Translations under genes and position numbers: made by a program
Notes under the pieces: model-generated
Seen by the model: the letters and a program-made list of their open reading frames with translations, nothing else
Told to the model about the DNA's origin: nothing
Databases searched by the model: none
Shown here: positions 3,360 through 48,830 of the stretch, piece after piece
Layout: every line of letters begins with the position of its first letter
Position numbering within the stretch: position 1 is the first letter of the stretch
NCBI GenBank assembly: GCA_040371255.1
Contig: BAABOD010000001.1
Coordinates: 60,545 to 124,544 of the forward strand
DNA from: Anaerolineaceae bacterium
GTDB taxonomy: Bacteria; Chloroflexota; Anaerolineae; Anaerolineales; Anaerolineaceae
Length of the DNA: 64,000 nucleotides
Direction: 5' to 3'

Positions 3360-3500
3360 CCTTGCCTCTCAATTTCAGCCAAAATAAAAATATCTGATCT
3401 ATCAGTTGTTCTAACCGTTAATTCTGATTTTTGATTATGAGTGTATTATAAACCCAATCATAAAATTTTAATTTGCTAAACTTCTACATTTATTTTCTCT

Positions 3501-6300: not shown

Positions 6301-6373
6301 CAATCAGATCTTCAAGCGCGCCAAGAAGGAAAATCCCAAGGCTGGAGAGCAGATAGGGTTGATTGAGAGGTAA
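6301..6373 (+). repeat. direct repeat copy B (displaced pseudo-3' end of the methylase gene, still ending in a stop codon)
   Basis: Would encode ..FKRAKKENPKAGEQIGLIER* versus the authentic ..FKRAKKENPKDGEQMGLIEG*. Confidence 0.9.
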
Positions 6374-6393
6374 AAAACTTAAATTTAACCTGT

Positions 6394-6508
6394 GTTCTTG
6401 CACGGTACCCGATGGGCAGGCTGCGCACTCTCCAGACCAGGCAAGGCATTTGACCATTAGGTCTCAAATATGGAGACCTTCGGTCAACTTCCTCGCTGGT
6501 GAGGACAC
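6394..6508 (+). repeat. composite three-hairpin repeat element (HP1 with L insertion, HP2, HP3)
   Basis: GTTCTTGCACGG[TACCCGATGGGCAGGCTGCGCACTC]TCCAGACCAGGCAAG; TTGACCATTAGGTCTC..GGAGACCTTCGGTCAA; CTCGCTGGTG-AGGA-CACCAGCGAG. Same architecture as 9249..9373, 9444..9604 and 30624..30742. Confidence 0.85.
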
Positions 6509-6524
6509 CAGCGAGAGCAGGGCA

Positions 6525-6546
6525 GTTAGGGCTGATAGCGGGGTGA
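6525..6546 (+). repeat. 22-bp core copy C (GTTAGGGCTGATAGCGGGGTGA)
   Basis: Matches the methylase terminal 22-mer and copy D at 9170..9191. It directly follows the composite repeat. Confidence 0.75.
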
Positions 6547-9169: not shown

Positions 9170-9191
9170 GTTAGGGCTGATTGAGGGGTGA
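9170..9191 (+). repeat. 22-bp core copy D (GTTAGGGCTGATTGAGGGGTGA)
   Basis: Its last 19 nt match the corresponding part of the methylase terminal sequence (5265..5283) at 18 of 19 positions. Confidence 0.8.
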
Positions 9192-9248
9192 ATCGAACAA
9201 CACGAGTAATACCTTTGCAAAGTATTTTCGTGGCTTTCCTTGCCTCCC

Positions 9249-9692
9249 GTTCTTTCACGATACCCTTCGGGCAGGCTATGCACGCTCCTGACCATGAAAG
9301 GCATTTGACCTTTAGGTCTACAATAAGGAGACCTTCGGTCAACTTCCTCGCTCGGTCAGAGACCGGCGAGAGCAGGCAGTGCTCGCTCGGTACCCTACAA
9401 GTAGGCTGCGCACTCTCCTACCATGAAAGGCATGGGTCCCTTTGTTCTTTCATGGTCTCCTGACCATGAAAGGCATATGACCGTTAGGTCTCAGGTTTCC
9501 TACTCCCATAAGATATCGATAAGTGCAATAAAAAATGGAGACCTGCGGTCAAAATCCTCGCTGGTCCTTACAGGAGGCTCTGCACTGAGGACACCAGCGA
9601 GAACAACCAAAGATGGAGACCGGCGAGAGCAGGGCAGTTTGCTCGCTCGGAACCCTACGAGTAGGCTTCGCACTCAGGAGACCGGCGAGAAC
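9249..9692 (+). repeat. dense array of modular palindromic repeats upstream of uvrB (two complete composite elements plus extra HP3/L modules)
   Basis: Composite elements at 9249..9373 and 9444..9604. Additional CTCGCTCGG[L]..GGAGACCGGCGAGAAC units at 9381..9432 and 9615..9692. Confidence 0.85.
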
Positions 9693-9753
9693 GAGAGCAT
9701 CATAACCTCTGCAAACTGTCTTTGCCATCTTCCCTTGCCTTATAATTATCCCC

Positions 9754-27267: not shown

Positions 27268-27321
27268 GTTCTTGCATGGTACCTTACGGGTAGGCTGTGC
27301 AACTCAGAAACCTGTAAGAAC
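27268..27321 (+). repeat. HP1 repeat unit carrying an L-module insertion
   Basis: GTTCTTGCATGG[TACCTTACGGGTAGGCTGTGCAACTC]AGAAACCTGTAAGAAC. Confidence 0.75.
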
Positions 27322-27684: not shown

Positions 27685-30591
27685 ATGCCTCAAGAAAACC
27701 TGCGCGTCATCGGCGCACGCGAACATAACCTCAAAAACATTACCGTCGAGATCCCGCGCGACAAACTTGTTGTGCTCACCGGACTCTCCGGTTCCGGTAA
27801 GTCTTCCTTGGCGTTCGATACTATCTTTGCCGAGGGCCAGCGCCGTTATGTGGAGTCGCTTTCTTCCTATGCCCGCCAATTCCTCGGACAAATGAACAAA
27901 CCGGATGTGGACGCCATCGAAGGGCTCTCGCCGGCGGTTTCCATCGACCAAAAAGGCACCACGCACAACCCACGCTCAACCGTGGGCACGGTCACCGAGA
28001 TTTATGACTACTTGCGTTTGCTCTTTGCCCGCGTGGGCATCCCGCACTGCCCTGTTTGCGGACGGCCGGTACAAAAGCAATCCGCGGATGAAATTGTCAA
28101 TGCAATCTTAGGATTACATGAAGGCAGCCGCCTGCTAATTCTCTCCCCGGTGGTGCGTGAGCGCAAGGGCACTTACCAAGCGGTCTTCGAGGACATCAGC
28201 AAGTCCGGTTTTGCGCGCGCACGCGTGGATGGTAACGTCTTTAGCTTGGACGAAGAAATCAAGCTGGACCGATACAAAAAGCACACCATCGAGGCAGTCG
28301 TCGACCGTGTGGTCATCTCCCACCCCGAAAACGAAGCAGATGAGAAAGCCCAACGCTCACGCCTAACCGACTCCGTCGAGACGGCGCTGCGCTATGGGGA
28401 TGGATACGTGACGGTGCAAAACCTGAGCAGCGATCCACCCGAAGATATCCAATTTTCGGAGAACTTAGCCTGCCCGGAACACGGCTCCATCCTAATCGAA
28501 ATCGAGCCGCGTACGTTTTCCTTCAACACGCCCCACGGCGCCTGCCCCACCTGCCAAGGCTTAGGCACTATGCAGGAAATTGACCCAGACTTGCTCATCC
28601 CCGATAAAAGCATCTCGCTACGGGATGGCGCCATCGCAGCACTAGAATGGTCTGGACCGCGTGAGGAAGGTGGCTACTACTGGCAAATGCTCGAATCCCT
28701 GGCTAAAAGTGCCCATATCGACCTGGACCAGCCCGTCAGCAAGCTGACCAAAGCTCAGCTGAACCTCGTGCTCTACGGCACGCAGGGCAAAGAAATCCCG
28801 GTGGAGTACACGCGCCATAACGGTCACGAGTCAGTCTTCTACACCCCTTTTGAAGGCGTGATCAACAACCTGCAGCGCCGCTACCGCGAGACCCAATCTG
28901 AATACATCCGCATGCGCATCGCCGAATTTATGGGCGAAAAGCCCTGCCCAGAGTGCGGCGGTAAGCGCCTGCGCAAGGAAGCTTTAGCCGTCACCGTGGA
29001 TGGCTTCAACATCATCGACGTGACCGAATGGCCCGTCAATAAGACTCTCGCTTGGATTGAGCATTTAGCCTCTCCAGCCGATTCGCCGCTCACCACGCGC
29101 GAGAAAGCCATCGCCGAACGCATCTTCAAGGAGATCACATCGCGTTTGGGCTTCTTGGTGGATGTGGGGCTGGATTATCTCACTTTGCAGCGCTCCGCGA
29201 GCACGCTTTCTGGCGGCGAGGCGCAGCGCATCCGCTTAGCCACGCAGGTCGGCTCGCGCCTGATGGGCGTGCTGTATGTGCTGGATGAGCCTTCCATCGG
29301 CTTGCACCCGCGCGATACCCGCCGGCTGCTGAACACCCTGGAGGGCTTGCGCGACTTGGGCAATACCGTCCTGGTGGTGGAGCATGATGACGAAACTATC
29401 CGCAGCGCCGATTGGGTGGTCGACCTTGGCCCTGGCGCCGGCGAGCACGGTGGCAAGGTGATTGCCGAGGGCACGCCAGAACAAATCCAGCAGGTGCCCG
29501 AGAGCCTGACCGGTGCGTACCTCTCCGGGCGGCTTGTCGTACCCGTCCCCGAGCAGCGCCGCCCGGGCAACGGCAAACACTTACGCATCATCGGCGCGGC
29601 TGCTAACAACCTCAAGAACCTCTCCGTTGATATCCCCTTGGGCAAGTTCGTGTGCATCACGGGCGTCTCGGGTTCAGGCAAGTCCACCTTACTCGTGGAC
29701 GTGCTCTATAACGCACTGGCACGCCAGCTGATGGGCGCGCACACCCAAGCCGGCGCTTACCAGCGCATCGAGGGTACCGAAAACTTGGATAAGATCATCA
29801 ACATCGATCAATCCCCCATCGGGCGCACCCCGCGCTCGAACCCCGCCACCTACACCGGCGTCTTCGATGATATCCGCGACCTGTTTGCCAGCATGCCAGA
29901 AGCCAAAATGCGGGGTTATACCAAAGGGCGCTTTTCCTTCAACGTAAAGGGTGGGCGCTGCGAAGCTTGCCAGGGGCAGGGTGAGCTGCGCATCGAGATG
30001 CAGTTCCTGCCAGATGTGTACGTCCCCTGCGAAGTGTGCCACGGTAAGCGCTATAACCACGAAACCCTGCAAGTGCGCTTCAAAGATCTCAACATTGCGG
30101 ATGTGCTCGACCTGTCGGTGGATCAAGCCTTGGAGCTTTTCTCTGCTTTCCCGCGTATCCAGCGCCGGCTGGAGACGCTGCAAGCCGTGGGCTTGGGCTA
30201 TATCCGCTTAGGGCAATCGGCGCCCACGCTCTCCGGCGGCGAGGCACAGCGCGTTAAGCTTGCCAAAGAGCTCTCGCGGCGCGCCACAGGCAGCACGCTG
30301 TATGTGTTGGATGAACCTTCGGTAGGTTTGCATGCCGCCGATGTGCACCGCCTGATCGAGGTGCTGCAATCGCTGGTGGATGCCGGCAACACGGTAGTCG
30401 TTATCGAGCACAACCTGGATATCATCAAGGTGGCGGATTGGATCATCGACCTGGGACCTGAGGGGGGCGAAAAGGGCGGCGAGCTGGTGGCGGAGGGCAC
30501 CCCCGAGCAGCTGTGCGGCAGCCCAGCTTCGTATACGGGGCAATACCTGCAAAAGTACGTCCGCCAGGTGCACCAGCGCGAGTGTGTGTAA
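27685..30591 (+). CDS. uvrA: excinuclease ABC subunit A
   Basis: 968 aa. Two ABC ATPase modules ([24 protein letters not shown]), LSGGEAQR signatures x2, zinc-finger cysteines. Confidence 0.97.
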
Positions 30592-30623: not shown

Positions 30624-30742
30624 GTTCTTGTTCTTGCATGGTCTCCTGACCATGCAAGGCTTTTGACCTTCAGGTCTCAAAATGTTTGAAATGCGGAGAC
30701 CTACGGTCAAACCCACTCGCACGGTCGGAGACCGGCGAGAAC
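30624..30742 (+). repeat. composite three-hairpin repeat element immediately downstream of uvrA
   Basis: GTTCTTGTTCTTGCATGG-TCTCCTGA-CCATGCAAG; TTGACCTTCAGGTCTC..GGAGACCTACGGTCAA; ..GGAGACCGGCGAGAAC. Confidence 0.85.
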
Positions 30743-30752
30743 AAGGAATAAC

Positions 30753-35926: not shown

Positions 35927-36907
35927 ATGCAAACTAATTTACGTGGCCGGGATCTGATCGGCGATCTGGATTTCAGCAAGGAAGAGGTCGAAACTGTTTT
36001 GGATGTGGCTTGGGACCTCAAGCGCAAGCGTGCCCTCAATGAACCACACGCTTACCTGCGTGATAAGACCCTCGCTATGTTGTTTTTCTTCAGCAGCACT
36101 CGCACGCGCGGTTCCTTCGAAGCCGGCATGGCGCAGCTGGGTGGGCACGCTGCCTTCATCGAGAGCGAAACCACCCAGATCAAGCATGGCGATACCCCTA
36201 AAGAGATTGGCGAAATTTTTGGGCGTTACTTTGATGGCATTGCCATCCGCCATTGCGACTGGGGCGTGGGGAATGCCTATCTTAACGAAGTCGCTAAATA
36301 CTCTCGCGCGCCTGTTTTCAACATGCAGTGCGAAATTTATCACCCCTTCCAGTGCTTGGCTGACTTGATGACCATCATGGAAAAGAAGGGGCGCGACCTG
36401 CGCAAAAAGCGCATTGTGGTCTCTTGGGCGTATGCTTCATCCTACCTTAAGCCCATTTCCGTACCGCAGTCGCTTATCTTGCAGATGCCGCGCTTTGGCA
36501 TGGACGTGGTGCTCGCTTACCCTGAGGAATTCAGGCTGATGCCTGAGGTTGAACAACAAGCCCGCGACGAAGCCAAGAAAGCCGGCACCTCCTTCGAGAT
36601 CGTGCATGACATGGACGAAGGCATCACGGGTGCAGATATCGTCTATGCCAAGTCTTGGGGTCCATTGCTGACCACCTCTGACCCGGCTGAGGGTAAGCGC
36701 ATCCAGGATTCCTACAAAAGTTGGATTATGGATCAGCGCCGCATGCAGCTGGCCAAGGAAGATGCTATCTATATGCACCCCCTGCCCGCCGACCGCAATG
36801 TCGAGATTACCGATGAGGTCATCGACGGCCCGCACTCCGTAGTCTTTGACGAAGCCGAAAACCGCCTGCACGCCCAAAAAGCCGTCCTGGCGCTCAGCAT
36901 GGCATAA
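35927..36907 (+). CDS. carbamoyltransferase of the ATCase/OTCase family (YgeW-like or acyl-ornithine type)
   Basis: SSTRTRGSFE carbamoyl-phosphate motif, HPFQCLADL, YMHPLPADR (HxLP) motif. Confidence 0.7.
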   Translation: MQTNLRGRDLIGDLDFSKEEVETVLDVAWDLKRKRALNEPHAYLRDKTLAMLFFFSSTRTRGSFEAGMAQLGGHAAFIESETTQIKHGDTPKEIGEIFGRYFDGIAIRHCDWGVGNAYLNEVAKYSRAPVFNMQCEIYHPFQCLADLMTIMEKKGRDLRKKRIVVSWAYASSYLKPISVPQSLILQMPRFGMDVVLAYPEEFRLMPEVEQQARDEAKKAGTSFEIVHDMDEGITGADIVYAKSWGPLLTTSDPAEGKRIQDSYKSWIMDQRRMQLAKEDAIYMHPLPADRNVEITDEVIDGPHSVVFDEAENRLHAQKAVLALSMA

Positions 36908-36929
36908 ACGCTGAATTAACCACACAAGC

Positions 36930-36959
36930 AAAAGGATCCTAGTATAAGGATCCTTTTTG
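36930..36959 (+). terminator. rho-independent terminator
   Basis: AAAGGATCCT-agtata-AGGATCCTTT followed by TTG. Confidence 0.65.
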
Positions 36960-37002
36960 TTATATAAGACCGTTTCCAGCAGCTTCATGGCATAATCAAA
37001 AT

Positions 37003-37779
37003 ATGCTACGCATAATGAGTTTTAATATTCGCTGCGCCAATTGTGATGATGGCGTGAACGTTTGGGAACAGCGCAAAAACCTGGTTCTCGATCGCATCCT
37101 AGCGTATGCGCCTAATTTGCTGGGCTTGCAGGAGTGCCGTGGGGATGGGCAAGCTCAATACCTGATTAAAAACCTGCCTGAATATTTCTTTTTTGGCATG
37201 CCGCGCGGTGGTGAAAGCAAAACAGCGCTCGAAATGGCACCCCTAATGCTGCGCAAAGAGTGTTTTGAGCTGCTTGATTACGGCAATTTCTGGCTGAGCG
37301 AAGAGCCCGACGAACCCGGCAGCCTCAGCTGGGGTTGCCAGTTCCCGCGCACAGTCAGTTGGGCTCGTTTGCGCCGAAAAGCGACAAGGCAGGAACTACT
37401 TTTCGCGAATACGCACTTTGACCTGGTCCCAGCCGCAAGGCGGCACTCTGCTGAAATACTGCGCGACTGGCTACAAGCCAATTCAACCGGCAGTTTGGTC
37501 ATCCTTACGGGAGATTTCAACGCTAATAAGCGTTCACGCGTCTATCAGACCCTCACAGGCGCTAGCTGGCTCACGGATGCCTGGCGCCGAGCCAACTCCG
37601 GCGCCCGGGATCAGGCAACCTTCCATGGTTTTGGCAATCCGCGAGACAGGGCTTGCATCGATTGGGTGCTGGTATCGCCAAGCTTGCATGTGCTTTCCGC
37701 CTCGGTGGATACCTTTACACAGGCTGGCCGCTACCCATCGGACCACTACCCGCTGCGGGTGGAGATAGAGTTTATATAA
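37003..37779 (+). CDS. endonuclease/exonuclease/phosphatase (EEP) family protein
   Basis: LRIMSFNIR..., LLGLQE, NTHFD, GDFN, SDHYPL catalytic motifs. Confidence 0.85.
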   Translation: MLRIMSFNIRCANCDDGVNVWEQRKNLVLDRILAYAPNLLGLQECRGDGQAQYLIKNLPEYFFFGMPRGGESKTALEMAPLMLRKECFELLDYGNFWLSEEPDEPGSLSWGCQFPRTVSWARLRRKATRQELLFANTHFDLVPAARRHSAEILRDWLQANSTGSLVILTGDFNANKRSRVYQTLTGASWLTDAWRRANSGARDQATFHGFGNPRDRACIDWVLVSPSLHVLSASVDTFTQAGRYPSDHYPLRVEIEFI

Positions 37780-37822
37780 TTACCATAGTTTTATAACGAA
37801 AGTATATAATATAGAAATTAGT

Positions 37823-38866
37823 ATGAATGACAAATACAATCACCCGACGAAATATTTTGTGCATAAATTTATAAATTGGGAAAAAGTAGAAGAGCGACTA
37901 AGTAAGTATAAGTATATAAACAAGTATTTTCCAATAAGTACTCTCAAGAGCGAAAAATTTACCGAGAAACCTCCATTCTATTGTCATTACTTGGCCTGGA
38001 GATTAGGTGTTTGGCATAATGAAGATTCATTTGAAAATTTCAATTATCTTTTAGAAAACGCAGAAACTATAAATGGTTGGAATGGTAAGAAAAGAATCCA
38101 GAACGAAAATGAATTTGGACAGTTTTGGAGTTTCTTATGGGAACTTCAAGTTGCAGAATTTCTTACATCATTCCCAAATTTGCAAGTTAATTGGAATGTA
38201 AGGAATGGCCCAGATTTATATATTCAGAAGAATAGTGAGGAGTTGTTTGTTGAATGTAAAACGATTCACAAATCTTTCGGATTAGAAAAATTTATAGAAG
38301 AAGTACTTAATCAAATTGATAAAACTATTCGCGTCTCACATGGTATCTTTACGAAGTTTTCATTAAGTCAAGATAATGAGAGAATCAATTTATTTGATTC
38401 TATTTTTAGGCCTTTTTTGGATCCAGCATTTATTGAGAATAAAAAGATTGAAGTACAAAAAGTATCACCATTAATAATTGTAGAAAATATATATCCAAAT
38501 TTTTTTATTTATTTGGAAAATAGCGATGCAAAACCAGCAAGTTATGAACTTTTATCAAAAATATATTCTGCTTCTGATCCTATAAAATATACTGATGTGA
38601 TATATAATGAAATAATAAATAAGGTAAAAGAAAACAATTTAGAAAGTTACCATCCAAATTTGCTTTTTGTAAATTTGGTGCTTAGTAAGGATTGGCAATT
38701 AGCATGCGGATGGAACAATCAGCATAACCTTCCTCAATCTCAAAATCTTGATAATGTTTTATTAACTGCGTGCGACATCGATAAACCAGCAAACTATAAT
38801 GGTTTCAAAGGAACTATAAATCGTGAGAGTAAAATTATTCAACAATTGCTTAACATAAAGCCATAA
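37823..38866 (+). CDS. very AT-rich orphan with a PD-(D/E)xK nuclease-like motif
   Basis: 347 aa. WELQVAEFL ... NGPDLYIQKNSEELFVECKTIH fits E...PD...ExK. Roughly 30% GC versus a host level near 55-60% (by eye). Confidence 0.35.
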   Translation: MNDKYNHPTKYFVHKFINWEKVEERLSKYKYINKYFPISTLKSEKFTEKPPFYCHYLAWRLGVWHNEDSFENFNYLLENAETINGWNGKKRIQNENEFGQFWSFLWELQVAEFLTSFPNLQVNWNVRNGPDLYIQKNSEELFVECKTIHKSFGLEKFIEEVLNQIDKTIRVSHGIFTKFSLSQDNERINLFDSIFRPFLDPAFIENKKIEVQKVSPLIIVENIYPNFFIYLENSDAKPASYELLSKIYSASDPIKYTDVIYNEIINKVKENNLESYHPNLLFVNLVLSKDWQLACGWNNQHNLPQSQNLDNVLLTACDIDKPANYNGFKGTINRESKIIQQLLNIKP

Positions 38867-38869
38867 TGT

Positions 38870-39853
38870 TCAATTAATTATCCTCGCCCCGGCGCCCGGC
38901 TTCGCCTTGAGCACCTCCAGCACTCCCGGCAGAGCGCGCAGCTGCGCTTCTGCCCAGGCTGCATCCTCTGCCAGTGCGATCACATGCACATTCGGGCCGG
39001 CATCGACCGTCGCGCAAACCGCGTGGCCCTGCGCCCGCCAGGCGCGCACATTCCAGATAACAACTTCTGTAGCGGGTGTCCAATAGTAAAGCGGTGGCTT
39101 GCTCGTGCGCATCACGGCGTGCATCCACTCGGAATCCAGCTCCACGACTTGCGCTAAGCGCACAAAATCCCGCGTAAGGATGGCTATGCGGCACTGCTCC
39201 AGCCGCTCAGGCTCCCCCGCTACGCGCAGCGCTTGCAACGGTGAGGTTGCTGCCAGCTTATGCCCAGCGCTTGAGCCGACGGCTTTCTCGCCGCGGTCCA
39301 CTACCACGATCAAGTCCACTACGTCCCAGTGCTCTGGCGGGGCAATCTGAACAGCGTAGGAATCCGCATCTCCGCTGCCCGGTAGCCACTCGGCGAACCC
39401 GCCTGGCACCGAGCGGCAGGCTGAACCCGAGCCCAACCGGGCTAAGCGTGAAAGCTCCACTTCGCTCAGCTCTAAGCCGGCAGCCCTGCTTGCAGCCAAT
39501 GCCAAGGCAGCAAACGCCGCTGCAGATGAGGCAATGCCAGCTCCAGAAGGATAATTACTGGTGCTTTCCACCTGCGCAAAGCGGTTCAGAACCGCCAACC
39601 GCCGCACATGATCCAAAAAGGACGCCACACGATTGAGCGCTGCGCCAGACTGTTCCATCCCGTTCAGAATGAAACGGTCTGCTGTTAAATCTGGATCGAA
39701 GCTGACACGTGTAACTGTATCCAATCCATCCAGCGCCATAGAGAGCGAACCTGTCAGTGGCAGACGAAGCTGGTCATTGCGGTTGCCCCAGTACTTGATG
39801 AAGGCAATATTCGGGTGCGCCAGTGCGGTTGCTTGAAGTTTTGCGGTTATCAT
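38870..39853 (-). CDS. mvaD: (di)phosphomevalonate decarboxylase (GHMP kinase fold)
   Basis: AHPNIAFIKYWGNR N-terminus, GLASSAAAFAAL-type motif (AGIASSAAAFAALALA). Confidence 0.85.
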   Translation of the reverse strand: MITAKLQATALAHPNIAFIKYWGNRNDQLRLPLTGSLSMALDGLDTVTRVSFDPDLTADRFILNGMEQSGAALNRVASFLDHVRRLAVLNRFAQVESTSNYPSGAGIASSAAAFAALALAASRAAGLELSEVELSRLARLGSGSACRSVPGGFAEWLPGSGDADSYAVQIAPPEHWDVVDLIVVVDRGEKAVGSSAGHKLAATSPLQALRVAGEPERLEQCRIAILTRDFVRLAQVVELDSEWMHAVMRTSKPPLYYWTPATEVVIWNVRAWRAQGHAVCATVDAGPNVHVIALAEDAAWAEAQLRALPGVLEVLKAKPGAGARIIN

Positions 39854-40948: not shown

Positions 40949-41443
40949 TTACTCCATAAACCTCGCCAGTCCGTTTGCGAGCAAGCCAGCCACAGGCGGG
41001 ACCACGAAGGTAATTGCGTAACGCAGCACAGCTACCTTGGTGTCGATAAGCGCGATTTCCATCGGGAAGCGCGAGACTGACCACAGCGACCAAGCCGAAA
41101 TGAACCCCACGACTGCACCAACCCCAGCGCCGGCTTTATACAGCCCGCCAACAATTGGGAACATCACATAAGGCGAGCCAGGGATCAGGCCGCCAGCTAA
41201 GCACCCAATCAAGACGCCCTTGACCCCAGCTTCCTTCCCTAACCAGGATTGAATAAGTTCTGGCGGCAGCAACACTTGCACCAGCCCTCCAATCAGAAAG
41301 CCGGCAAGCAAGAGCGGTAGTGCGTTCCATAAGGTTTTACCAGCTAATTCGACCCCCTCCTTGGCTAGCCCGCCTCCGCGGATAAGCGCATAAATGAGCA
41401 ATGCAACCGCAAGCCCGACCATCACCATCGTCACAGTGTCCAT
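40949..41443 (-). CDS. predicted permease (half-size COG0701/ArsP-like)
   Basis: Start at MDTVTMVM (RBS AAGGAG). GLIPGSPYVMFPIVGGLYKAGAG motif. Five hydrophobic segments. Confidence 0.55.
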   Translation of the reverse strand: MDTVTMVMVGLAVALLIYALIRGGGLAKEGVELAGKTLWNALPLLLAGFLIGGLVQVLLPPELIQSWLGKEAGVKGVLIGCLAGGLIPGSPYVMFPIVGGLYKAGAGVGAVVGFISAWSLWSVSRFPMEIALIDTKVAVLRYAITFVVPPVAGLLANGLARFME

Positions 41444-41626
41444 TGTTGATCTCCTTTTTTCCCGCATCACTCCTCAATCTCCTTTCGGTCGATGTGTTTT
41501 CGTAGTTATAAATAATTATATTTGCAATAGTATAAGCCTGATGAAAATGATATTTATTAAATAATATTATCATCTTTTTATGAATTAAGAAATGTTTGGA
41601 AGGAATCTATCTTTTTATATTCTCAC

Positions 41627-41665
41627 ACTTCGTAAACTTTCCCAAAAAGCCCGAGCAGACCGCGC
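41627..41665 (-). repeat. displaced remnant of the 3' end of the SAM-methyltransferase gene (direct repeat of 43834..43872)
   Basis: 33 of 39 positions identical. The minus strand reads *RGLLGLFGKVYEV* versus ..RGPLGLFGQVYEVGEFVKLS* in the intact gene. Confidence 0.8.
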
Positions 41666-43833
41666 TAAGAGACAAGCATGCGTGACAATATACCGTTGCC
41701 TTCCTACGAGAGAAACCTGTAATTTTCTTTTGAATTTATAGAACACTACACCGTTGCTGGTGCGATAAACTTGAGAGCACCTTCTATAAGGGTTCTATGG
41801 CAATGGACCAATTACGTCGAAAGTGTTCAGAATTTCATCCAGCGCGTCAAGATCGGCATCGGACATGATTTGTACCAATACGAGCACCAGCAGCGATGTG
41901 GAACTGTGGGGTTTGGCTGAAAGGATGACAAGCACACCTTCGGAATCAAGACAATTTGAAAATACGTCGAACGCGCCCTCAAAGGCTGAGTCCTCATAAT
42001 CTTCACGATACTCGAACGTGCAGTCATCTTCACGAGCCCAATCACGGTACACATCCAGCAACTGGATGTACCCGCCTAACTCGGCAATGTCATCGGTAGC
42101 GCCAAAGAAGACGCCTGGTTCAGAATAGGAGGCGTTAAAATTATCAAGACTGGCAGCTGCTGTGATGGACGCGCCAATGATATCGCCACTATCCACCCAG
42201 GCTGACCCGTCTATCTCTGACCAGGCAGCTGGCACCGACACCTGAATGGCGCCATAATCGTCCTGCACAAGGACGTACTCATCGTAGTTCGTAATTGTTT
42301 CACCTTCTTCACCCTCAACCTCGCCCCCTAACTCAGTGGCGAAGGAAAAGCTGGTCTCCAGTTCACGTCCATTGAGCTGGCCTTCAAGATATTCCTCGCT
42401 GGCATAGCGTAGAACTTCAACTGCTATCGTATCATCGGGGTTACGAGTACGCAAGATATCGCAGTAATCAGCCATGGTGCCGTCGGTAGCCAAAAGCAAT
42501 CCCTCCATGGAAGTCAGAATATCTCCACCCTGGATACCGGTTTTATCAGCGGGCGAACCGGATTTTACCGATGAAACCCAGATGCCTGAGAGAGAACCAT
42601 CTTCGGTAACAACTGCCTGCCCGTTGATACCAATCGATTCGACATCTTCGCCTCCGCGCAGACTCTCGATAACTGGTTGAGCTCGGGAGCCAAGAATAGC
42701 AAAATTTTGGTCAGTCGATTCAATCATGGCAAAGTTGATACCGACCACTTTTCCATCATTGGTCACCAGTGGTCCGCCTGAGTTGCCACCGCGAATGCGA
42801 GCATCATGCTCGATGACAGCATCTACCGAAGCCCACGAAGTCTCTCCGTTTGCATTAGCCTTGGAGATGATCCCTCTGGTCAGGGTATATTCCGGATCGC
42901 CAAGCGGGAAGCCGGCGGTATACACATCCATGCCTGGCTTAATTTCACCGCTATACCAATCGAGATAAGAATAACCCTCTCCTTCCACATCGATTACTGC
43001 TAGGTCCCAGCATTCAGAAACACCAAGGATGCGGGCATTACGGGGTTTCTCCTCTCCAGCTACCCAAATCTGGAGCAGGGCTGCGCCGGTGACGACATGG
43101 TTATTGGTGACGGCAATACCGGATGGGTCGATAAAGAAGCCTGATCCTCTCCCTGCGGAATTATATAGCGTCCCTAACTGCGGGTCGATAAATGTACCCT
43201 CAGCCACAATCTGAATGGTAGCTTGCTGGACGCCTTCAAGGGTATCCACCAACCCCAGTGGTTTGGTGGGCTCGGGGGAGGGTGTATTGCTAGGCTCTAG
43301 GGAAGGTGTACTGCTGGGTTCCGAGGGAAGCGTTGAAGTTTCTACCGTAGCGCTTGGCGTGCAAGCAGTGGTGATCAGCGCTAAAATAAGGAGGACCGAA
43401 GGTATAAGAAAGCGTTTCATGGTTAATCTCCTCTACTTTACTTGTATAAACTAAAAACAGCCTGTGTCAACTAAATCATTTAATGCATTATAATTTTGTA
43501 AATATTTGTTTAACAAATATTCTACACATTGCTGACTAAAAAAGTTCAGCGTATCTTGAGTTGATTATCAAATTAATTATACACTAAATTATACACTTAA
43601 TTTGACTCATTTAATCATCTTTCAGCGGTAGGGTGCGCCGACGAGAAACTCGAAAATTAACCAGGGATGGAAGTGGGGAATTCCCCCATTGCTTGATGAG
43701 TATTCTTCTGCGCGTAAATTTTGGGATTACCAAAGAACAATGGAAAATTTTTGCCCAAATATACTGAATGAGTTGAGTAATTATCCTCTAAAGAATTTCT
43801 TGCCCGACTTAACTCAATTTCACAAATTCCCCT
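41666..43833 (-). mobile_element. insertion cassette carrying the secreted serine protease, bounded by 39-bp direct repeats
   Basis: AT-rich flanks (41450-41790, 43420-43810). Bounded by a duplicated host-gene 3' end. No recombinase gene. Confidence 0.35.
41795..43420 (-). CDS. secreted trypsin-like (S1C/HtrA-like) serine protease lipoprotein with PDZ domain and an unassigned C-terminal domain
   Basis: Signal/lipobox LILALITTAC. GSGFFIDPSGIAVTNNHVV (His). GNSGGPLV (Ser). PDZ-like SGSPADKTGIQGGDILTSMEG. Confidence 0.85.
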   Translation of the reverse strand: MKRFLIPSVLLILALITTACTPSATVETSTLPSEPSSTPSLEPSNTPSPEPTKPLGLVDTLEGVQQATIQIVAEGTFIDPQLGTLYNSAGRGSGFFIDPSGIAVTNNHVVTGAALLQIWVAGEEKPRNARILGVSECWDLAVIDVEGEGYSYLDWYSGEIKPGMDVYTAGFPLGDPEYTLTRGIISKANANGETSWASVDAVIEHDARIRGGNSGGPLVTNDGKVVGINFAMIESTDQNFAILGSRAQPVIESLRGGEDVESIGINGQAVVTEDGSLSGIWVSSVKSGSPADKTGIQGGDILTSMEGLLLATDGTMADYCDILRTRNPDDTIAVEVLRYASEEYLEGQLNGRELETSFSFATELGGEVEGEEGETITNYDEYVLVQDDYGAIQVSVPAAWSEIDGSAWVDSGDIIGASITAAASLDNFNASYSEPGVFFGATDDIAELGGYIQLLDVYRDWAREDDCTFEYREDYEDSAFEGAFDVFSNCLDSEGVLVILSAKPHSSTSLLVLVLVQIMSDADLDALDEILNTFDVIGPLP

Positions 43834-44471
43834 ACTTCGTAAACCTGCCCAAAAAGCCCAAGCGGGCCCCGCATGGGGGTGATGTTCCCCGGGCCGAAAA
43901 CCTCTTGCGCTGCCACTCGCACGTCTGTCTCTGTGGAGAAGTGATGTTCGCGGATATCGGCGCCCAGCAAGCGGAACATGAACACCATGAAAGGCCGTTC
44001 TACCGGCACGCCGTAAACCACCTGCCCGCCAGGCTTGAGCACCCGCCAAATCTCCCGGAAAGCCGGGAGCTGCTCCTCTGGCTGTAAGTGCTCCAGGATG
44101 CTGATGAGCAGCACGGCATCGAAGCTCTGGTCAGGATAAGGGATTTGCAGGACGCTGCCATTGCGCAGTTTGGTCTGAACGCCGAGGTTAGCAAACATCT
44201 CTTCTACCTGGCGGGTGTCTGCGGTTAGGTCTAAGCCGTGAATTTCCTGATAAAGTTGGCTGAGGTTGAGGAAACTGACGCCCGAGCCGAAGCCGACTTC
44301 GAGCACGGATTGCCCGCCCATGAGCTGTTCCAAGCAAAGCTCGATGCGCCGCTGGTACATGCGCCCGATGACGGGTAAGCGGTAAAACTTGATCGGGTCT
44401 TTTTCATCCACGCCAACATAACGCTCGAGTGGCAGGAGTTGCAAGCGAATTTGCTCTTTGGGTGGTTTCAT
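43809..44471 (-). CDS. class I SAM-dependent methyltransferase
   Basis: Motif I VLEVGFGSG, post-I HGLDL, motif II FDAVLLISILEH. The last 7 codons (GEFVKLS) are AT-rich. Confidence 0.8.
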   Translation of the reverse strand: MKPPKEQIRLQLLPLERYVGVDEKDPIKFYRLPVIGRMYQRRIELCLEQLMGGQSVLEVGFGSGVSFLNLSQLYQEIHGLDLTADTRQVEEMFANLGVQTKLRNGSVLQIPYPDQSFDAVLLISILEHLQPEEQLPAFREIWRVLKPGGQVVYGVPVERPFMVFMFRLLGADIREHHFSTETDVRVAAQEVFGPGNITPMRGPLGLFGQVYEVGEFVKLS

Positions 44472-44621
44472 GTTGGGCTGGCTTCCAATAAACTAAATAA
44501 TTTTTCAGGTTTCCATTTTACCTTATCCACTTAGAAGACGCACAAAGCAGGCGCTCTGGAAAATATTCCGCTATAATACCATGCGTTGCGTGAGCGACAG
44601 TTTGAAGCGACAGAGGAATTT

Positions 44622-46409
44622 ATGTGCGGAATTTTCGGAATTGTAACTAAAGATGAGCAGCCCTTAGGGCCCATTCTTATCGACGCAGCCAAACGTCTGA
44701 CCTACCGCGGTTACGACTCGGTGGGGACCGCTACGCTCAACAGCGGGCGGATTGACCTGCGCAAAGATAAGGGCCGCGTGGATGAGGTGGCGGAGCGCTA
44801 TAACTTTGCCGAGATGCGCGGGCAGCGTGGCATAACACAGCTGCGCTGGGCTACTTTCGGCGCGCCATCCAAGGAAAATGCCCAGCCACATTTGGATTCC
44901 GATGGCGACATGGTCGGAGCGCACAATGGCAACGTGGTCAATAACGTGGAGCTGCGCCAAGCCTTTATGGCGGAAGGCATGACGGTGCGCTCGCAGAACG
45001 ACGGCGAATCCTGCGTGCATGCCGTCGAGCGGTATGTGAACCAGGGTCAGGACATGGTCAGTGCCATCCGCTTGGCTTATCAGGACCTGCAGGGCGATTA
45101 CGCCTTTGTGATTGGCAGCATCTATGACGACAAGCTCTACGCCATTAAGAAGGGTTCTGGTTTAGTGGTGGGAATTGGCGACGGCTTTACCTGCGTCTCC
45201 TCAGATTTGCCCTCGATCCTGCCACTGACACGTAAAATCGTGCGCCTCAATGATGGCGACGTGGTCACCCTAAGCTGGGATGGCATAGAACTGCACGCGG
45301 TGAGTGACGGCAGCCGGATTGAACGCGAGCCAGAGCTGATCACCGAGGAAATGTCCGCGGTGCAAAAAGGCGGCTATGCTCACTTTATGCTCAAGGAAAT
45401 CCATGAGCAACCCCAGGTGGCACGCGAGCTGCTGCACTTGCTGGCGCATCACCCCGATGTGCCCCGCGTCTTGCAAGCCATAGAAGCCGCGCGTAATGTG
45501 TATTTCATCGGCTGCGGCACGAGCTACCACGCCTGCTTGGCTGGCTCTGTCTACTTTGGCTGGCAGGCAAAACGGGCTGTAATCCCTGTTTTAGCGCCAC
45601 AATTCATCGCGCAGTATGCTCCTGCGGTCAATGAGCAGGATGTAGGCATTTTCGTCAGCCAATCTGGCGAGACGAAGGATGTGCTCAATGCTCTGGAGCG
45701 CGCACAAGCTGCTGGGATGACCTGCTATAGCATGGCTAACGTGATTGGTTCGACGCTGACCAAACAAACCTCTGCCTGGCTGCCATTGACTTGCGGCTAT
45801 GAGATCAGCGTGCCGGCAACCAAGACGTTTACCAATCAGGTGATCACTTTCCTCTACCTGGCTAACCTATTGGGCGGAGGAGATGGGCAGGCGTTGGAAG
45901 GTCTGCCGGTCCTGATGGAAGAAACCCTTGCCGTGTGTGAACCACAAGTGAGGGTTTTGGCTGAAGAGATCAACGCTTGGAATGATCTGTATTGTTTAGG
46001 TTATGGCGCCACGCTCCCCATGGCGCTGGAAGGCGCACTGAAGCTCAAGGAGATCACCTACGCCCACTGCGAAGGCATGCTTTCCACCGAGTTCAAACAC
46101 GGTCCGCTTTCAGCTGTAACCAAGGGCTTCCCAGTGATATTTGCGGTGGGTCCAGAAGACGTGCCGCTCATCGTGAGTGGCATCAACGAGGTAACCTGCC
46201 GCGGTGGGCGCGCGATTGCCATCGGTGCAGAACACAGCCGCCTGCGTGCCAATGCCACTGACCTAATTCCTATCCCGGCTGCCGAGGCTCCCATAGCTGC
46301 ATTGCTGACCGTGCTGCCATTGCAGTTGCTGGCTTATCACATGTCGATTGGGCGCGGCTATGACCCTGACTTCCCGCGCAACCTGAGCAAAACCCTGACA
46401 GTGGATTAG
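44622..46409 (+). CDS. glmS: glutamine--fructose-6-phosphate aminotransferase
   Basis: MCGIFGI N-terminal nucleophile, two SIS domains, C-terminal PRNLSKTLTVD (consensus PRNLAKSVTVE). Confidence 0.95.
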   Translation: MCGIFGIVTKDEQPLGPILIDAAKRLTYRGYDSVGTATLNSGRIDLRKDKGRVDEVAERYNFAEMRGQRGITQLRWATFGAPSKENAQPHLDSDGDMVGAHNGNVVNNVELRQAFMAEGMTVRSQNDGESCVHAVERYVNQGQDMVSAIRLAYQDLQGDYAFVIGSIYDDKLYAIKKGSGLVVGIGDGFTCVSSDLPSILPLTRKIVRLNDGDVVTLSWDGIELHAVSDGSRIEREPELITEEMSAVQKGGYAHFMLKEIHEQPQVARELLHLLAHHPDVPRVLQAIEAARNVYFIGCGTSYHACLAGSVYFGWQAKRAVIPVLAPQFIAQYAPAVNEQDVGIFVSQSGETKDVLNALERAQAAGMTCYSMANVIGSTLTKQTSAWLPLTCGYEISVPATKTFTNQVITFLYLANLLGGGDGQALEGLPVLMEETLAVCEPQVRVLAEEINAWNDLYCLGYGATLPMALEGALKLKEITYAHCEGMLSTEFKHGPLSAVTKGFPVIFAVGPEDVPLIVSGINEVTCRGGRAIAIGAEHSRLRANATDLIPIPAAEAPIAALLTVLPLQLLAYHMSIGRGYDPDFPRNLSKTLTVD

Positions 46410-46421
46410 AGCGGTCTTAGC

Positions 46422-48830
46422 TTATTCCTCCTCCTCCCCTTGAATATTCTCACGCTTCGTGATAAACATCCTCGGTTGGCTGCCGAAGTGATGATGCACA
46501 CTACCGTCAGGCAAAGTGACGATGGTATTCTTGCCCTCACGTACCACTTCTACACCGCGGTAGCGTATGCTGAGCCGCCACGGGAAAGGGAACTCCCCAG
46601 CAACCTGCACACGATCCGGTGCCAAAAGCTTGATGCCAGCCAGTTCGAGAAAAATTTGCAACGGGAGTAAACCCGTGAGGCAGTTGCTTTTACCCAAAGG
46701 CAGAGCGTTCTGGCTGTTATAAGCTTCACATAGGTGGTGCTCCTGCCGCAGCACTTGAACCGCACCGCGCATCAAGCTGGTAAAAAGCTCTGCAGCTTCA
46801 GGCTTAGCGCCAACCTCTAATATGTGTCTCAGTACCAGGCTGTTCCATGCTGGATTTATCGAGCCTGTTTTGATAGCTTCCTGAGTTTTTTGTTCGTAAT
46901 TCGGCAAGCCATAAAGGCTAGAGGCAAAAATTGATTGTGGGGGATCTTCTGCGTCGACGTTGAATTCGTCCTGGGCTCCCTCAATAAGCTCCGAGGGTTT
47001 CAGCTTTTCTTCAGGCGTGTAAGCCAAATACCAACCAATATCCCTGAGCGTTAGATCCGCCACGTAAATCCTCAGCCAGGTCTGGTCGCTCAGCTCGGGA
47101 AAGCTGATGCGCTCGATCTGTTGGTAAACCTGCTCCGTGGTAAAAAACAGATATTCTCCTAAGCGGGAGAGCGCTGCGCTGGGTATGGTTTCTTCAATCG
47201 GTTTGCCATCGGGACTTTTACCCAGGAGATGAACTTGTGTAGGCTTTGGAGCCGTTAATCCTATCAGCAGCTTGACGTTGATACGGGCAGCTTGTGCCAA
47301 GTGTAAGCTTTGGTGCTCTAGTTCAGCAATGCTGCCCTCGAAGAGCACAGCTTGGCTAGTTAGCAGGTGAGAATCGCGATCCCAGCAGCTGGCTTCCGGG
47401 AACTGTGTGTGCATTGCCCGAAGCTGAGAAGTTAGTTTAGCCTGCAATGCGCTCGCGTGCTCAAGAGTATCTTGATCTCCCACAATCCGAGCGATTTTTT
47501 GCAGCGCGTCGAGTTCTTTTACCAACATCTTTCCCAGAGCATAACTCTCAGTGGTGGCGATGCGTGTGGCTAAGTGCTTAGGATTGAAAATATTAAAGGT
47601 AGGGTGATCATTCCAGCCGGTTTGCGCAAGCACTGCCCACTCGGGGAGCCCATCTTGGTCACGGTCCAGAGATGGATCGAACCAAGCCAAGCACGTTTCT
47701 TGGATGTGAGGAAAGATTTCTGTCAAGAATTCGAGATCACCAATTTGAGCGTAAATCTGTACTGCCAATTGGGCTAAGCATGGAAAGGGCAGCACTTTGC
47801 GCCCCAAACCAGGCACCTTGGGAGGATCGCTCAGGAGTGGAAGCTGAGCAAGGAAGACAGCCGCTGCTTCGGATGGGTGCAATGGGATTAATGCTTGGCA
47901 GAGTTGTGCTAGAGCGAGCGCTGGAATGTTGGGTTCGAGCGGCATATTGCGCTTCGAAGCTGTTAAATTTTGCATGTAGCTATAATCTGTGCTGCGATTG
48001 GGGTAAAAATTCAGCTGCTCAGGGTCTGCTTCTGTGCGGATGAGGGCTTGCTGAGCGGCATTTTGGCAGGTCAGAAAAACAGCATCCCAATCGGCATTGG
48101 GCGTGCTGATTTCCAAGATCTCTGCCCGTTGGGAAAGCCTAAGGTTAGCAATAGCTGCATCCCAATTTTCAGGGAAGGGTTGGAATGCGCGTTTTACGCT
48201 GGTTTCTTCGTCTAATGCGGCACTCCAGCGCCAAGTAAATGTTAGCATTTCCTGTGGAGCAACTTTACCTTCGCATTGTAAAGCAGAAAAGGGGCTATAC
48301 ACTGGTGCAGCTTGTCCGGATGCTGCTAAGGATAAATAAAGATTACCTGTTTTTCCTGATAAATAGGGCTGATATTGGAGCACAGCTGGCGCCATTCCAA
48401 CGCTCCCTTCCAACGGAAAAAGTTCCGCCGCAGCTTGGATTCCAAGCATTGCTTTGGATTCAGTCAAGTTGTGCAAGCTTAGCCGGCAAAGCAGAGTGGT
48501 GCTGGTCTGAGCCCAAACTTCCAAGCGTGCCTGAAAGCCAGACGCAGGCGTGCAAGTAAAGCGCGCATAATTGGAGAAGATTTCGTCTACGCGCGGCTGG
48601 GAGAAAAAATCATTAATTAGCCATATCGGCTGGCGGTTGATCAAGAAAACCGGAAAGAGGCTAAACTTTTTTGCCTGTAAGCATAAGCTGGTTTCAAGCG
48701 CAAGAGGCTTGTTTGGATTTAAATTTGCCTGCCAGACAGCATCAATATATGGGTCGAGCAATCCGAAGCGCTGGTCTGCAGCTAAGGTCAAGCCAATGGG
48801 ATCCGATTGGAAAAAGGGGCTAGCAAGCAT
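46422..48830 (-). CDS. (alpha/alpha)6-barrel glycoside-hydrolase-like protein (GDE_C/GH63-like)
   Basis: 802 aa. DRDQDGLPEWA..GWNDHP resembles the acidic loop motif of six-hairpin glycosidases. The rest is unassigned. Confidence 0.4.
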   Translation of the reverse strand: MLASPFFQSDPIGLTLAADQRFGLLDPYIDAVWQANLNPNKPLALETSLCLQAKKFSLFPVFLINRQPIWLINDFFSQPRVDEIFSNYARFTCTPASGFQARLEVWAQTSTTLLCRLSLHNLTESKAMLGIQAAAELFPLEGSVGMAPAVLQYQPYLSGKTGNLYLSLAASGQAAPVYSPFSALQCEGKVAPQEMLTFTWRWSAALDEETSVKRAFQPFPENWDAAIANLRLSQRAEILEISTPNADWDAVFLTCQNAAQQALIRTEADPEQLNFYPNRSTDYSYMQNLTASKRNMPLEPNIPALALAQLCQALIPLHPSEAAAVFLAQLPLLSDPPKVPGLGRKVLPFPCLAQLAVQIYAQIGDLEFLTEIFPHIQETCLAWFDPSLDRDQDGLPEWAVLAQTGWNDHPTFNIFNPKHLATRIATTESYALGKMLVKELDALQKIARIVGDQDTLEHASALQAKLTSQLRAMHTQFPEASCWDRDSHLLTSQAVLFEGSIAELEHQSLHLAQAARINVKLLIGLTAPKPTQVHLLGKSPDGKPIEETIPSAALSRLGEYLFFTTEQVYQQIERISFPELSDQTWLRIYVADLTLRDIGWYLAYTPEEKLKPSELIEGAQDEFNVDAEDPPQSIFASSLYGLPNYEQKTQEAIKTGSINPAWNSLVLRHILEVGAKPEAAELFTSLMRGAVQVLRQEHHLCEAYNSQNALPLGKSNCLTGLLPLQIFLELAGIKLLAPDRVQVAGEFPFPWRLSIRYRGVEVVREGKNTIVTLPDGSVHHHFGSQPRMFITKRENIQGEEEE

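Follow-up and report, generated by a model that had tools for sequence, protein, structure and literature searches.

The end of a SAM-dependent methyltransferase (MTase) gene occurs twice in a genome of Candidatus Mesolinea (Chloroflexota): once in the intact gene, and once, as a short fragment, on the far side of a protease gene. How did the second copy come to lie there? We studied this locus within a stretch of 64,000 nucleotides, hereafter called the window, and use window coordinates throughout. The locus is a hypervariable spot in a genome of 1.63 Mb. For comparison, 71 genomes of the genus were used; genomes are designated by G-numbers (G000 is the present genome) and metagenome contigs by L-numbers. 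The distal copy is probably a recombination scar, i.e., the orphaned 3' end of an "empty-type" MTase allele, which was left by a homologous crossover combined with an illegitimate junction. Ordinary recombination between two alleles, rather than a dedicated machine that inserts cassettes, is the most likely cause.

The hot spot is bordered by two conserved genes. On the proximal side lies glmS (44586..46409, plus strand), which contains a sharp recombination breakpoint at 45424/45425. All of the other features described here are on the minus strand. The live MTase gene (43809..44471, 220 aa, Methyltransf_11/25, Pfam E=1.5e-18) includes the proximal repeat (43819-43875) and is the homology anchor; its orthologues were found in 11 of the 71 genus genomes. 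An AT-rich spacer with a GC content of 26-39% extends from the MTase stop to the protease start (43421..43808) and has a predicted promoter-like site, TTGTTA-18-TATAAT, at 43516-43487. About 20 nt of the spacer adjoining the MTase stop are common to other cassette alleles. The string that follows the stop, GTCGGGCAAGAAATTC, resembles the start of the 474-type allele and persists as a stub in L054, which has no protease.

The cargo gene (41795..43420) encodes a secreted protease of the HtrA/DegP type (541 aa) with Trypsin_2 (E=5e-25), PDZ_6 and PDZ_2 domains. The original prediction described the 2.2 kb between the copies as a single gene for a secreted trypsin/PDZ lipoprotein without a recombinase, and the annotation agrees: the Trypsin_2/PDZ protease is the sole gene between the repeats, no recombinase is present, and the signal peptide carries a lipobox-like motif ending in Cys (ITTAC). 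The C-terminal ~190 aa of the protease have no family match. Protease orthologues occur in 13 of the 71 genus genomes, mostly at other loci and with 60-62% identity. The gene is followed by a 3' tail of ~125 nt (41673..41794), which includes a weak terminator-like hairpin at 41763-41748 and whose distal end is an illegitimate junction. Next come the decaying orphaned MTase 3' end with its empty-type (E) tail (41579..41672) and an AT-rich region upstream of the permease gene (41471..41578), which is part of the E allele and is colinear with G010 and G049; in the cassette-B alleles, homology with the window ends at 41490. The conserved distal flank is the permease gene itself (40949..41470, 173 aa, ArsP_1 family, Pfam PF03773, E=3.7e-12). 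Permease orthologues with 85-96% amino acid identity adjoin the variable interval in G010, G049, G062 and several metagenome contigs.

The repeat was first noticed as a pair of 39-nt stretches with 33 of 39 positions identical, and we reproduced this pair. A repeat search extends it to 47 nt with 81% identity (41619-41665 and 43826-43872, spacing 2207 nt), and alignments of relatives widen the repeat to ~55-60 nt (distal 41612-41672, proximal 43819-43875). The distal copy was expected to read RGLLGLFGKVYEV and stop. It does so, but the homology runs on beyond this stop as EYKKIDSFQTFLNS, so that the whole remnant reads (Met to stop)-RGLLGLFGKVYEV-stop-EYKKIDSFQTFLNS-stop. It contains two in-frame stops and differs from the live copy at 16 positions, which are spread as 4/4/8 over the three codon positions. 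A query with 41600-41700 against the entire genome (1.63 Mb) returned two copies only (E=3.3e-6 for the second copy), and thus the sequence is not a dispersed repeat. An Rfam search over the entire window found no RNA families.

In G010 the MTase gene directly adjoins the permease gene. The end of the MTase gene with its tail (VYEVGEYEKTDSFQTFPNS, stop) is colinear with 41351-41665 of the window, and an independent metagenome contig continues from 41615 into an intact end of the gene in this empty allele. The uninterrupted arrangement that had been predicted for relatives was thus found, and the topology of a gene, an insert and a displaced gene end is real. The remnant and the intact gene end of G010 (MRGPLGLFGQVYEVGEYEKTDSFQTFPNS, stop) are colinear and 82% identical; the G010 MTase gene has a stretch of ~45 N immediately upstream of where the junction lies. 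Relative to the empty allele, the window carries an insertion, one border of which (41351-41665) is colinear with the resident allele, while the other is a new junction within the anchor gene. In coding orientation this junction reads CACGCATGCTTGTCTCT followed by TAGCGCGG. It links the protease tail to ~codon 197 of the MTase gene at ~41668-41673 and is conserved in all four alleles that combine the protease with the remnant (P-E alleles).

The earlier reading of the gene ends themselves needs correction in two respects. It took the ancestral gene to end in VYEV; this stop arose later through mutation of a conserved Gly codon, and the empty allele continues as GEYEKTDSFQTFPNS up to its stop. 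It also regarded the last seven codons of the live gene as a donation from the insert. The live C-terminus, VYEVGEFVKLS, has a length typical of the family, whose members normally end in G-x-[FY]-x-K plus 0-3 residues, and it is therefore not insert-donated. The tails of the two copies differ, being family-typical on the live end and E-type on the remnant, and the split begins where the coding constraint ends.

At least six allelic arrangements of the MTase-permease interval exist within the genus. One remnant and one junction are common to G000, G049/L055, L052 and L056, and sequence comparison indicates that their P-E allele is of single origin. The sister species G050 (/L096) has 6 kb of unrelated cargo and another MTase remnant with a different breakpoint: its remnant starts at ~codon 130 (~270 nt), and those of G000 and G049 at ~codon 197 (~60 nt). 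Insertion has thus recurred with a different junction and different cargo. In L051 a cassette cuts the protease at codon 405, and this allele is a deletion outcome of the same process. In L058 the protease is present without the remnant and without the tail, and homology with the window stops exactly at the protease stop codon. The junctions are therefore variable, and the products include duplication (60 nt in G000, 270 nt in G050), deletion (L051) and the scarless arrangement of L058. The starts of three cassette types lie no more than a few nucleotides from the MTase stop, and cassette B is in the opposite orientation. No common motif above chance was detected at the cassette ends (P tail, G050 junction, L057).

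Divergence rises close to the hot spot, whose flanks form a patchwork of recombination tracts on the kb scale. Over 45425-47418, G000 and L057 are 99.75% identical, with only 5 differing positions, whereas 117 positions differ over 44600-45400 (85% identity). Between G000 and L056 the proteases are 98-100% identical, whereas the MTase genes are only ~88% identical.

Scars of this type are present at no fewer than five loci in this 1.6-Mb genome, which belongs to an uncultured Chloroflexota lineage of anaerobic digesters. The methylase locus (5206-6377) has the same topology, as had been proposed, with several partial gene-end copies in series. The suggested scan for further duplicated gene 3' ends revealed at least three more genes in G000 (metF, cdsA and a gene on contig C76). 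The duplication lengths across scars are 60, 82, 203 and 270 nt. In a genome-wide control, the last 70 nt of a gene were directly repeated within 10 kb downstream (score of at least 18) in 9 of 952 genes; the same scan gave one case for inverted repeats and two for 5' segments.

Two better-preserved scars allow their copies to be compared by codon position. The live MTase gene of G050 and its remnant have 26 differences, 22 of them at third codon positions (P=1e-7), with 16 changes on the live branch and 8 on the remnant branch. The metF scar (G000 contig C21) is a 203-nt duplication around a single 578-aa gene. Its copies have 12 of 13 differences at third positions (P=1.7e-5), are identical in all 67 residues and have one derived base in common. 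The metF site is empty in G062, G010 and G069, and G048 has a donor-like order, metF and then a homologue of the inserted gene, as ordinary chromosomal synteny. Duplication in situ would leave a neutrally decaying copy, and thus the synonymous bias argues for two alleles: the copies of G050 and of metF diverged under purifying selection as two working alleles that were later joined.

The window scar is old, and its 4/4/8 spread is due to later decay, so the two-allele test is not directly applicable to it. Its origin from two alleles is nevertheless suggested by the sister events and by the different tails of the copies. A tree of the 58-nt copies, which are short and decayed, was not resolved. 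The ancestral consensus of the remnants is nearly identical to that of the live copies and is therefore uninformative in this respect.

As to how the events were ordered, by which route recombination proceeded and how the DNA entered, we infer the following. The ancestor would have had an empty-type allele with the MTase gene directly beside the permease gene. DNA coming from a related lineage would have carried an MTase gene followed by the protease transcription unit. One event would be a homologous crossover in or upstream of the MTase gene; the other would be an illegitimate junction from ~125 nt past the protease stop to ~codon 197 of the resident MTase gene. A linear fragment could have been incorporated by homology-facilitated illegitimate recombination (HFIR). 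A circularised fragment bearing the last ~60 nt of the gene would give the same product through a single crossover. A homology of 60 nt is short for a RecA-dependent single crossover, a point against the reconstruction. The incoming gene end would then have become the live end, and the resident end would have been moved ~2.2 kb downstream and have decayed. The composite allele may subsequently have spread among Ca. Mesolinea lineages through homologous recombination in the flanking genes. In none of the genomes and contigs examined could we find an uninterrupted donor sequence that extends past the protease tail. ComEC and DprA genes are present in the genome, which is only permissive for transformation; to our knowledge, natural transformation is undocumented for Anaerolineae.

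Several other explanations have to be weighed against this reconstruction. The cassette could be a small integrative element that was inserted site-specifically by a tyrosine or serine recombinase acting in trans, with an attP mimicking the MTase 3' end and the two repeats as attL and attR. Such an element would account for the intact end on one side and the displaced end on the other, for the imperfect repeats, which are usual for att sites of this sort, and for the serial partial gene ends of the methylase locus, which look like tandem accretion. Three tyrosine recombinase genes (PF00589) are indeed encoded elsewhere in the genome, on other contigs and with no link to the locus. The start of different cassettes within a few nucleotides of the MTase stop is predicted by a site-specific process, but it is also explained by selection for an intact gene. 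We nevertheless consider site-specific integration quite unlikely, and the evidence speaks against an integrase system with a fixed att site. Neither the insert nor its surroundings encode a recombinase; another, independent event in the MTase gene left a 270-nt instead of a 60-nt remnant with unrelated cargo; L058 has the protease without a remnant and L051 has a truncated protease; the cassette ends have no common motif; the donor arrangement of metF is ordinary synteny in a relative; and the private differences of the two copies from the empty allele are interleaved, with no core switch. Much of this also speaks against a common trans-acting machine targeting gene 3' ends, which the original prediction had envisaged and which is not indicated by our data: the G050 event has another junction and other cargo, one protease allele lacks the remnant and another truncates the protease, and the well-preserved scars diverged under purifying selection. 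In addition, the dispersed 130-nt repeat located beside the methylase locus has no member in 41400-43900. It is very unlikely that Ca. Mesolinea routinely gains single-gene units, mostly secreted proteins, by a dedicated gene-end-recognising process that leaves 40-270-nt duplications at many loci, be it a trans-acting recombinase using gene-end mimics or small circular cassettes integrating by a short-homology single crossover. An unlikely origin, too, is duplication in situ, i.e., a replication or repair error (such as staggered-break fill-in, template switching, or a tandem duplication that an insertion subsequently interrupted) that copied ~60 nt of the resident end during the capture of foreign DNA and was followed by divergence. 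A by-eye consensus of the four P-E alleles suggests that the copies were nearly identical over the central ~45 nt at the birth of the allele, so a perfect duplication at that time is possible for the window scar; the derived base common to both metF copies would also fit. Yet the live copy has a family-typical tail and the remnant an E-type tail, and the copies of the sister scars diverged under purifying selection with a shorter remnant branch, which is the opposite of what decay predicts.

The direction of change might also be reversed, with the protease arrangement being ancestral and empty genomes such as G010 having lost the cassette through recombination between the repeats. Direct repeats can give rise to deletions, the length of the P-type MTase end is typical of the family, with the E-type tail as an extension, and L054 retains an 18-nt stub of the left end of the cassette, which points to protease loss in the L054 lineage. 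However, a remnant with an E-type tail beside the permease requires a pre-existing intact E-type gene end, and the single copy of G010 is not a left/right chimera of the repeats, because the private differences are interleaved. Moreover, this scenario concerns the history of G010 and leaves the origin of the duplication unexplained. We regard it as highly improbable. As for chance similarity or membership in a dispersed repeat family, the genome does have a 130-nt dispersed family and many AT-rich intergenic regions. This explanation is almost certainly wrong: it is ruled out by the number of copies (two in the genome), by the absence of the 130-nt family between 41400 and 43900, and by the orthology, in its context, of the distal copy to the intact gene end of G010.

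Some known kinds of elements were considered and rejected. A transposon or IS with target-site duplication does not apply, as a transposase is lacking and 41673/43818 show no terminal inverted repeats, and the duplications vary from 60 to 270 nt. Against an integron gene cassette, the protease has its own promoter-like upstream region, cassette B is reversed, and the tails have no common motif. A template/variable repeat pair of a diversity-generating retroelement (DGR) was rejected since the difference spectra of the window pair and of six other local pairs are not adenine-specific; the empty site of G010 shows that the locus carries an insertion.

The process is of a known kind and gives no pointer to a new class of mobile elements. 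HFIR and single-crossover integration of circularised fragments are presented as experimentally demonstrated for S. pneumoniae, A. baylyi, P. stutzeri and E. coli in PMC3240628 and its references. The experimental single crossovers left duplications of the homologous locus of 109-950 bp (PMC3240628). As in our case, there is a conserved anchor gene, one illegitimate junction, and insertion accompanied by deletion or partial duplication of resident DNA. In contrast to those laboratory constructs, the locus studied here records a natural and old event in an uncultured genus, and 60 nt is shorter than the reported duplications. Displacement of C-termini with orphaned 3' ends is described for rhs, CDI and T6SS effector loci (Jackson et al. 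2009, as cited in PMC5361080; Kirchberger et al. 2017, PMC5361080), and the orphaned ends in T6SS and rhs arrays have been ascribed to HFIR (PMC5361080). There, too, a module is anchored on a conserved upstream part, and the resident 3' end is displaced downstream, sometimes in series. However, in those loci the new 3' end alters the toxin and brings an immunity gene, and the orphans are reusable, whereas here the anchors are of a housekeeping type (MTase, metF, cdsA, DNA methylase), their protein stays the same, an unrelated accessory gene serves as cargo, and all that is left of the displaced end is a short, dead piece.

Islands moved by tyrosine recombinases, including integrase-less cis-mobilisable derivatives, enter the 3' ends of tRNA, tmRNA or protein genes. 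They resemble our locus in having direct 3'-end repeats at both borders and a gene kept whole by insert-borne sequence. They differ from it in that here there are no integrase and no fixed core, the junction and the repeat length are variable, and the copies behave like two diverged functional alleles. Flexible genomic islands, or replacement hot spots, whose contents are exchanged through homologous recombination, likewise have alternative contents between two conserved genes, raised divergence and kb-scale mosaic flanks; replacement by double crossover is scarless there, whereas here the rare illegitimate step is preserved.

The locus and its intermediate alleles appear to preserve the rare illegitimate step that first placed an accessory gene beside a conserved gene, after which the combination would have spread by ordinary homologous recombination. 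Given that scars occur at five or more loci, homology-anchored illegitimate recombination may contribute measurably to gene gain in this lineage. The codon-position test on gene-end duplicates provides a simple event counter for metagenome-assembled genomes.

Finally, in assembled Logan contigs, which showed no excised form, alleles of the E, B and 474 types co-occur in the same digester metagenomes, in keeping with recombination between alleles; these co-occurring alleles represent related strains.

The locus lies on the reverse strand of the window and comprises genes of an ArsP_1-type permease (40949-41470), of a Trypsin_2/PDZ protease of 541 aa (41795-43420), which carries a signal peptide with a lipobox-like Cys, and of a 220-aa SAM-methyltransferase of the Methyltransf_11 family (MTase, 43809-44471); glmS comes next, on the forward strand. 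The spacers are AT-rich (26-40% GC vs 50-60% in the genes). According to the original prediction, a 2.2-kb single-gene cassette without a recombinase is flanked here by a 39-bp duplication of the MTase 3' end. We reproduced the pair (33 of 39 positions identical, 41627-41665 vs 43834-43872); the only gene between the copies is the protease gene, and no recombinase is encoded there. A repeat search of the window lengthened the pair to 47 nt (81% identity, copies 2207 nt apart), and the alignment with relatives extends the homology to about 55-60 nt (41612-41672 vs 43819-43875). The possibility that the similarity belongs to a widespread repeat was dismissed, as a search of the whole 1.63-Mb assembly gave these two copies only (E=3.3e-6 for the second).

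In a relative, G010, the genes glmS, MTase and permease are contiguous, and window positions 41351-41665 are colinear with its sequence at 82% identity; an N run in the G010 MTase gene hides about 45 nt just upstream of the junction region. The colinearity makes the distal copy the orthologue of an intact MTase 3' end in its original context. In addition, a contig of an independent digester metagenome continues from 41615 into the intact gene end of an allele with an empty interval. Compared with this type of allele, about 2.15 kb has been added in the window and about 60 nt of the target doubled. The relatives with an uninterrupted MTase-permease arrangement that had been predicted thus exist, but their MTase does not stop after VYEV: the G010 protein ends in ..MRGPLGLFGQVYEVGEYEKTDSFQTFPNS-stop. 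The distal copy translates as RGLLGLFGKVYEV-stop-EYKKIDSFQTFLNS-stop, and the first of these stops arose later, by mutation of a conserved Gly codon.

The MTase gene is present in 11 of 71 species genomes of the genus; we surveyed its alleles in these and in eleven close relatives from metagenome contigs. The MTase-permease interval contains nothing in G010 (allele E). In G062, L054, L057 and L059 it contains a 1.6-kb block in the opposite orientation, with a YaaA-like gene and a 254-aa gene (allele B). The protease and the remnant (allele P-E) are found in the genome under study (G000), Candidatus Mesolinea sp. UBA7927 (G049/L055), L052 and L056, while in L058 the protease is directly followed by block B without a remnant (allele P-B). 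G050/L096 has a 474-aa gene, a gene of a 1199-aa FG-GAP/Big protein, an MTase remnant of about 270 nt and then block B (allele 474/1199); in L051 the 474-aa gene is followed by a protease fragment from codon 405 (allele 474-P). The interval is a hot spot. The junction (...CACGCATGCTT(G)TCTCT joined to (T)A(T)GCG..) is identical in position among all P-E alleles, hence a single origin for them. In L054, which carries block B, the protease is missing but an 18-nt stub of the left end of its cassette has survived. The fragment in L051 (4165-4571, codons 405-541) is frameshifted and lies immediately behind the 474-aa gene; here the protease was cut into when a cassette was replaced. A repeat of about 75 nt (CTGAACCAGGTC...GCAGGGGCTCGACTGCCCTCAC; L096 8840-8960, L057 5940-6030) borders the 474/1199 cassette at two places, after the MTase and after the permease, and is cut in G050 where the MTase remnant joins; it may be a cassette-end element.

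The suggestion that the last codons of the live gene were donated by the insert did not hold. In the wider MTase family the C-terminus is ..VYE[VI]G[HDE][FY]xK plus 0-3 residues, and the protease-linked and 474-linked alleles have this family-typical length (GEFVKLS, GDYRKVS, GDYRKAG and GDFRKAR, each followed by a stop). About 20 nt past their stop codons are also alike. In alleles E and B, the tail is an extension by read-through.

If the repeat had arisen by in situ duplication, the copies would have been identical at birth, with the dead one decaying in place; the alternative is that they derive from two alleles. The codon positions of the differences can decide between these explanations. 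The MTase gene was the target of a separate event in G050 (G050:C15, locus L047, 596-964 and 6875-7537), where an insert of about 6 kb precedes the remnant, which is 89% identical to the live copy. The two differ at 26 of 241 positions, 22 of them third codon positions (P=1e-7). Of the changes, 16 fall on the live branch and eight on the remnant branch, six of these eight at third positions. At metF of G000, outside the window (contig C21:2309-4704), the last 203 nt are duplicated with 93.6% identity around one gene, that of a 578-aa secreted beta-helix protein. G062, G010 and G069 have nothing inserted at this site; in G048 a homologue of the inserted gene comes after metF, as normal, donor-like synteny. 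Among 13 differences between the metF copies, 12 are at third positions, with no amino-acid change over 67 codons (P=1.7e-5). Such a bias is not what a dead copy decaying in place would show; the copies were working genes while they diverged in different lineages, and they were joined afterwards. The scar in the window is older than these two (16 differences, 4/4/8 over codon positions, two stops), and we infer two alleles for it because of the sister events and of the two different tails. The same bin contains a small contig, C88:1-2440, with an empty-site version of the metF locus (identity 83.5% in the left flank and 97% in metF), and therefore holds sequence of a second, related strain.

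One homologous crossover and one illegitimate junction would give the product seen at the MTase locus; the route may have been homology-facilitated illegitimate recombination (HFIR) of a linear fragment, or else a single crossover with a circularised one. Duplications of the homologous locus, 109-950 bp long, were left in E. coli by single crossovers with circular molecules (PMC3240628). Insertion by a site-specific system with a fixed core does not fit: the independent events in this MTase gene have different breakpoints and resulted in a duplication, a deletion or no scar, there is neither a recombinase nor a shared motif at the cassette ends, where we looked for one, and, with the empty allele as reference, differences private to one copy or the other are interleaved without a switch at a core. 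On the criteria tested, the locus does not qualify as an att-flanked island, nor as a transposon, integron cassette or DGR. The joining of two alleles resembles HFIR and single-crossover scars in mechanism and, in topology, the C-terminal displacement of rhs and T6SS genes with orphaned 3' ends (PMC5361080). Here, in contrast to the latter, housekeeping-type genes serve as anchors without any change to their proteins, and an unrelated accessory gene forms the cargo. The finding is real, and a process of a known kind explains it well; as a natural new example in an uncultured lineage it is of moderate interest.

The locus had been regarded as a second case of the arrangement at the methylase locus (5211-9191). 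There, the last 82 nt of the methylase gene (3631-5283) are indeed repeated at 6296-6377 (87% identity) around a single AT-rich ORF, and G062 and G010 have other content and no second copy. A common machine found no support. The 130-nt dispersed repeat that lies beside the methylase gene has no copy at the MTase locus. The proposed genome scan for duplicated gene ends was productive: the 3' end is repeated downstream in 9 of 952 genes (score at least 18) vs 1-2 in controls, with real cases including metF, cdsA and a gene on contig C76, so the pattern recurs in this genome. The best reading is that general recombination at hot spots, rather than a single machine, leaves this mark. N runs flanked by duplicated sequence, which stem from scaffolding gaps or withheld sequence, produce false local repeats in such scans (C2:~114119-114208, C62:~3316-3405 and C10:~28090-28179 in G000; the MTase gene in L025 of G010). 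At C16:5727-9433 (a perfect 71-nt repeat), C43:6661-9441, C38:5671-6757 and C7:33678-40877 of G000, inserts of one to three genes lie between further direct repeats (70-185 nt, 84-100% identity); they involve a P-type ATPase, a secreted repeat protein of 694 aa, the cdsA end and a 6.9-kb block. The hairpin-rich dispersed repeat (about 130 nt) occurs at 6394-6546, 9246-9695, 27268-27301 and 30642-30746 of the window and on 24 other contigs, with 62 BLAST matches on 25 contigs; many copies stand in tandem upstream of uvrB. It has no match in Rfam and may be REP- or MITE-like. Partial copies of the last 25 nt of the methylase gene abut or neighbour it.

Homologous recombination seems to have spread the composite allele. 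Away from variable intervals, G000 and G062 share 95-100% identity, beside them 87-91%. Between G000 and contig L057 there are 5 differences over 45425-47418 (99.75% identity) vs 117 over 44600-45400 (about 85%), which places a sharp breakpoint inside glmS; identity drops again from 47419. Positions 45425-47418 are a recent recombination tract of about 2 kb. The protease is 98-100% identical to that of L056, the MTase about 88%. Hence kb-scale tracts carry the composite allele between lineages 10-15% diverged. The same digesters hold several of the alleles together, and the genome encodes ComEC and DprA, which would permit DNA uptake but do not demonstrate it. At 36895-38880 of the window, G000 and its close relative G062 differ in a second variable interval; G062 has about 2.8 kb of other content there, with a paralogue of a nearby gene among it, and the identity beside the interval dips to 88-90%.
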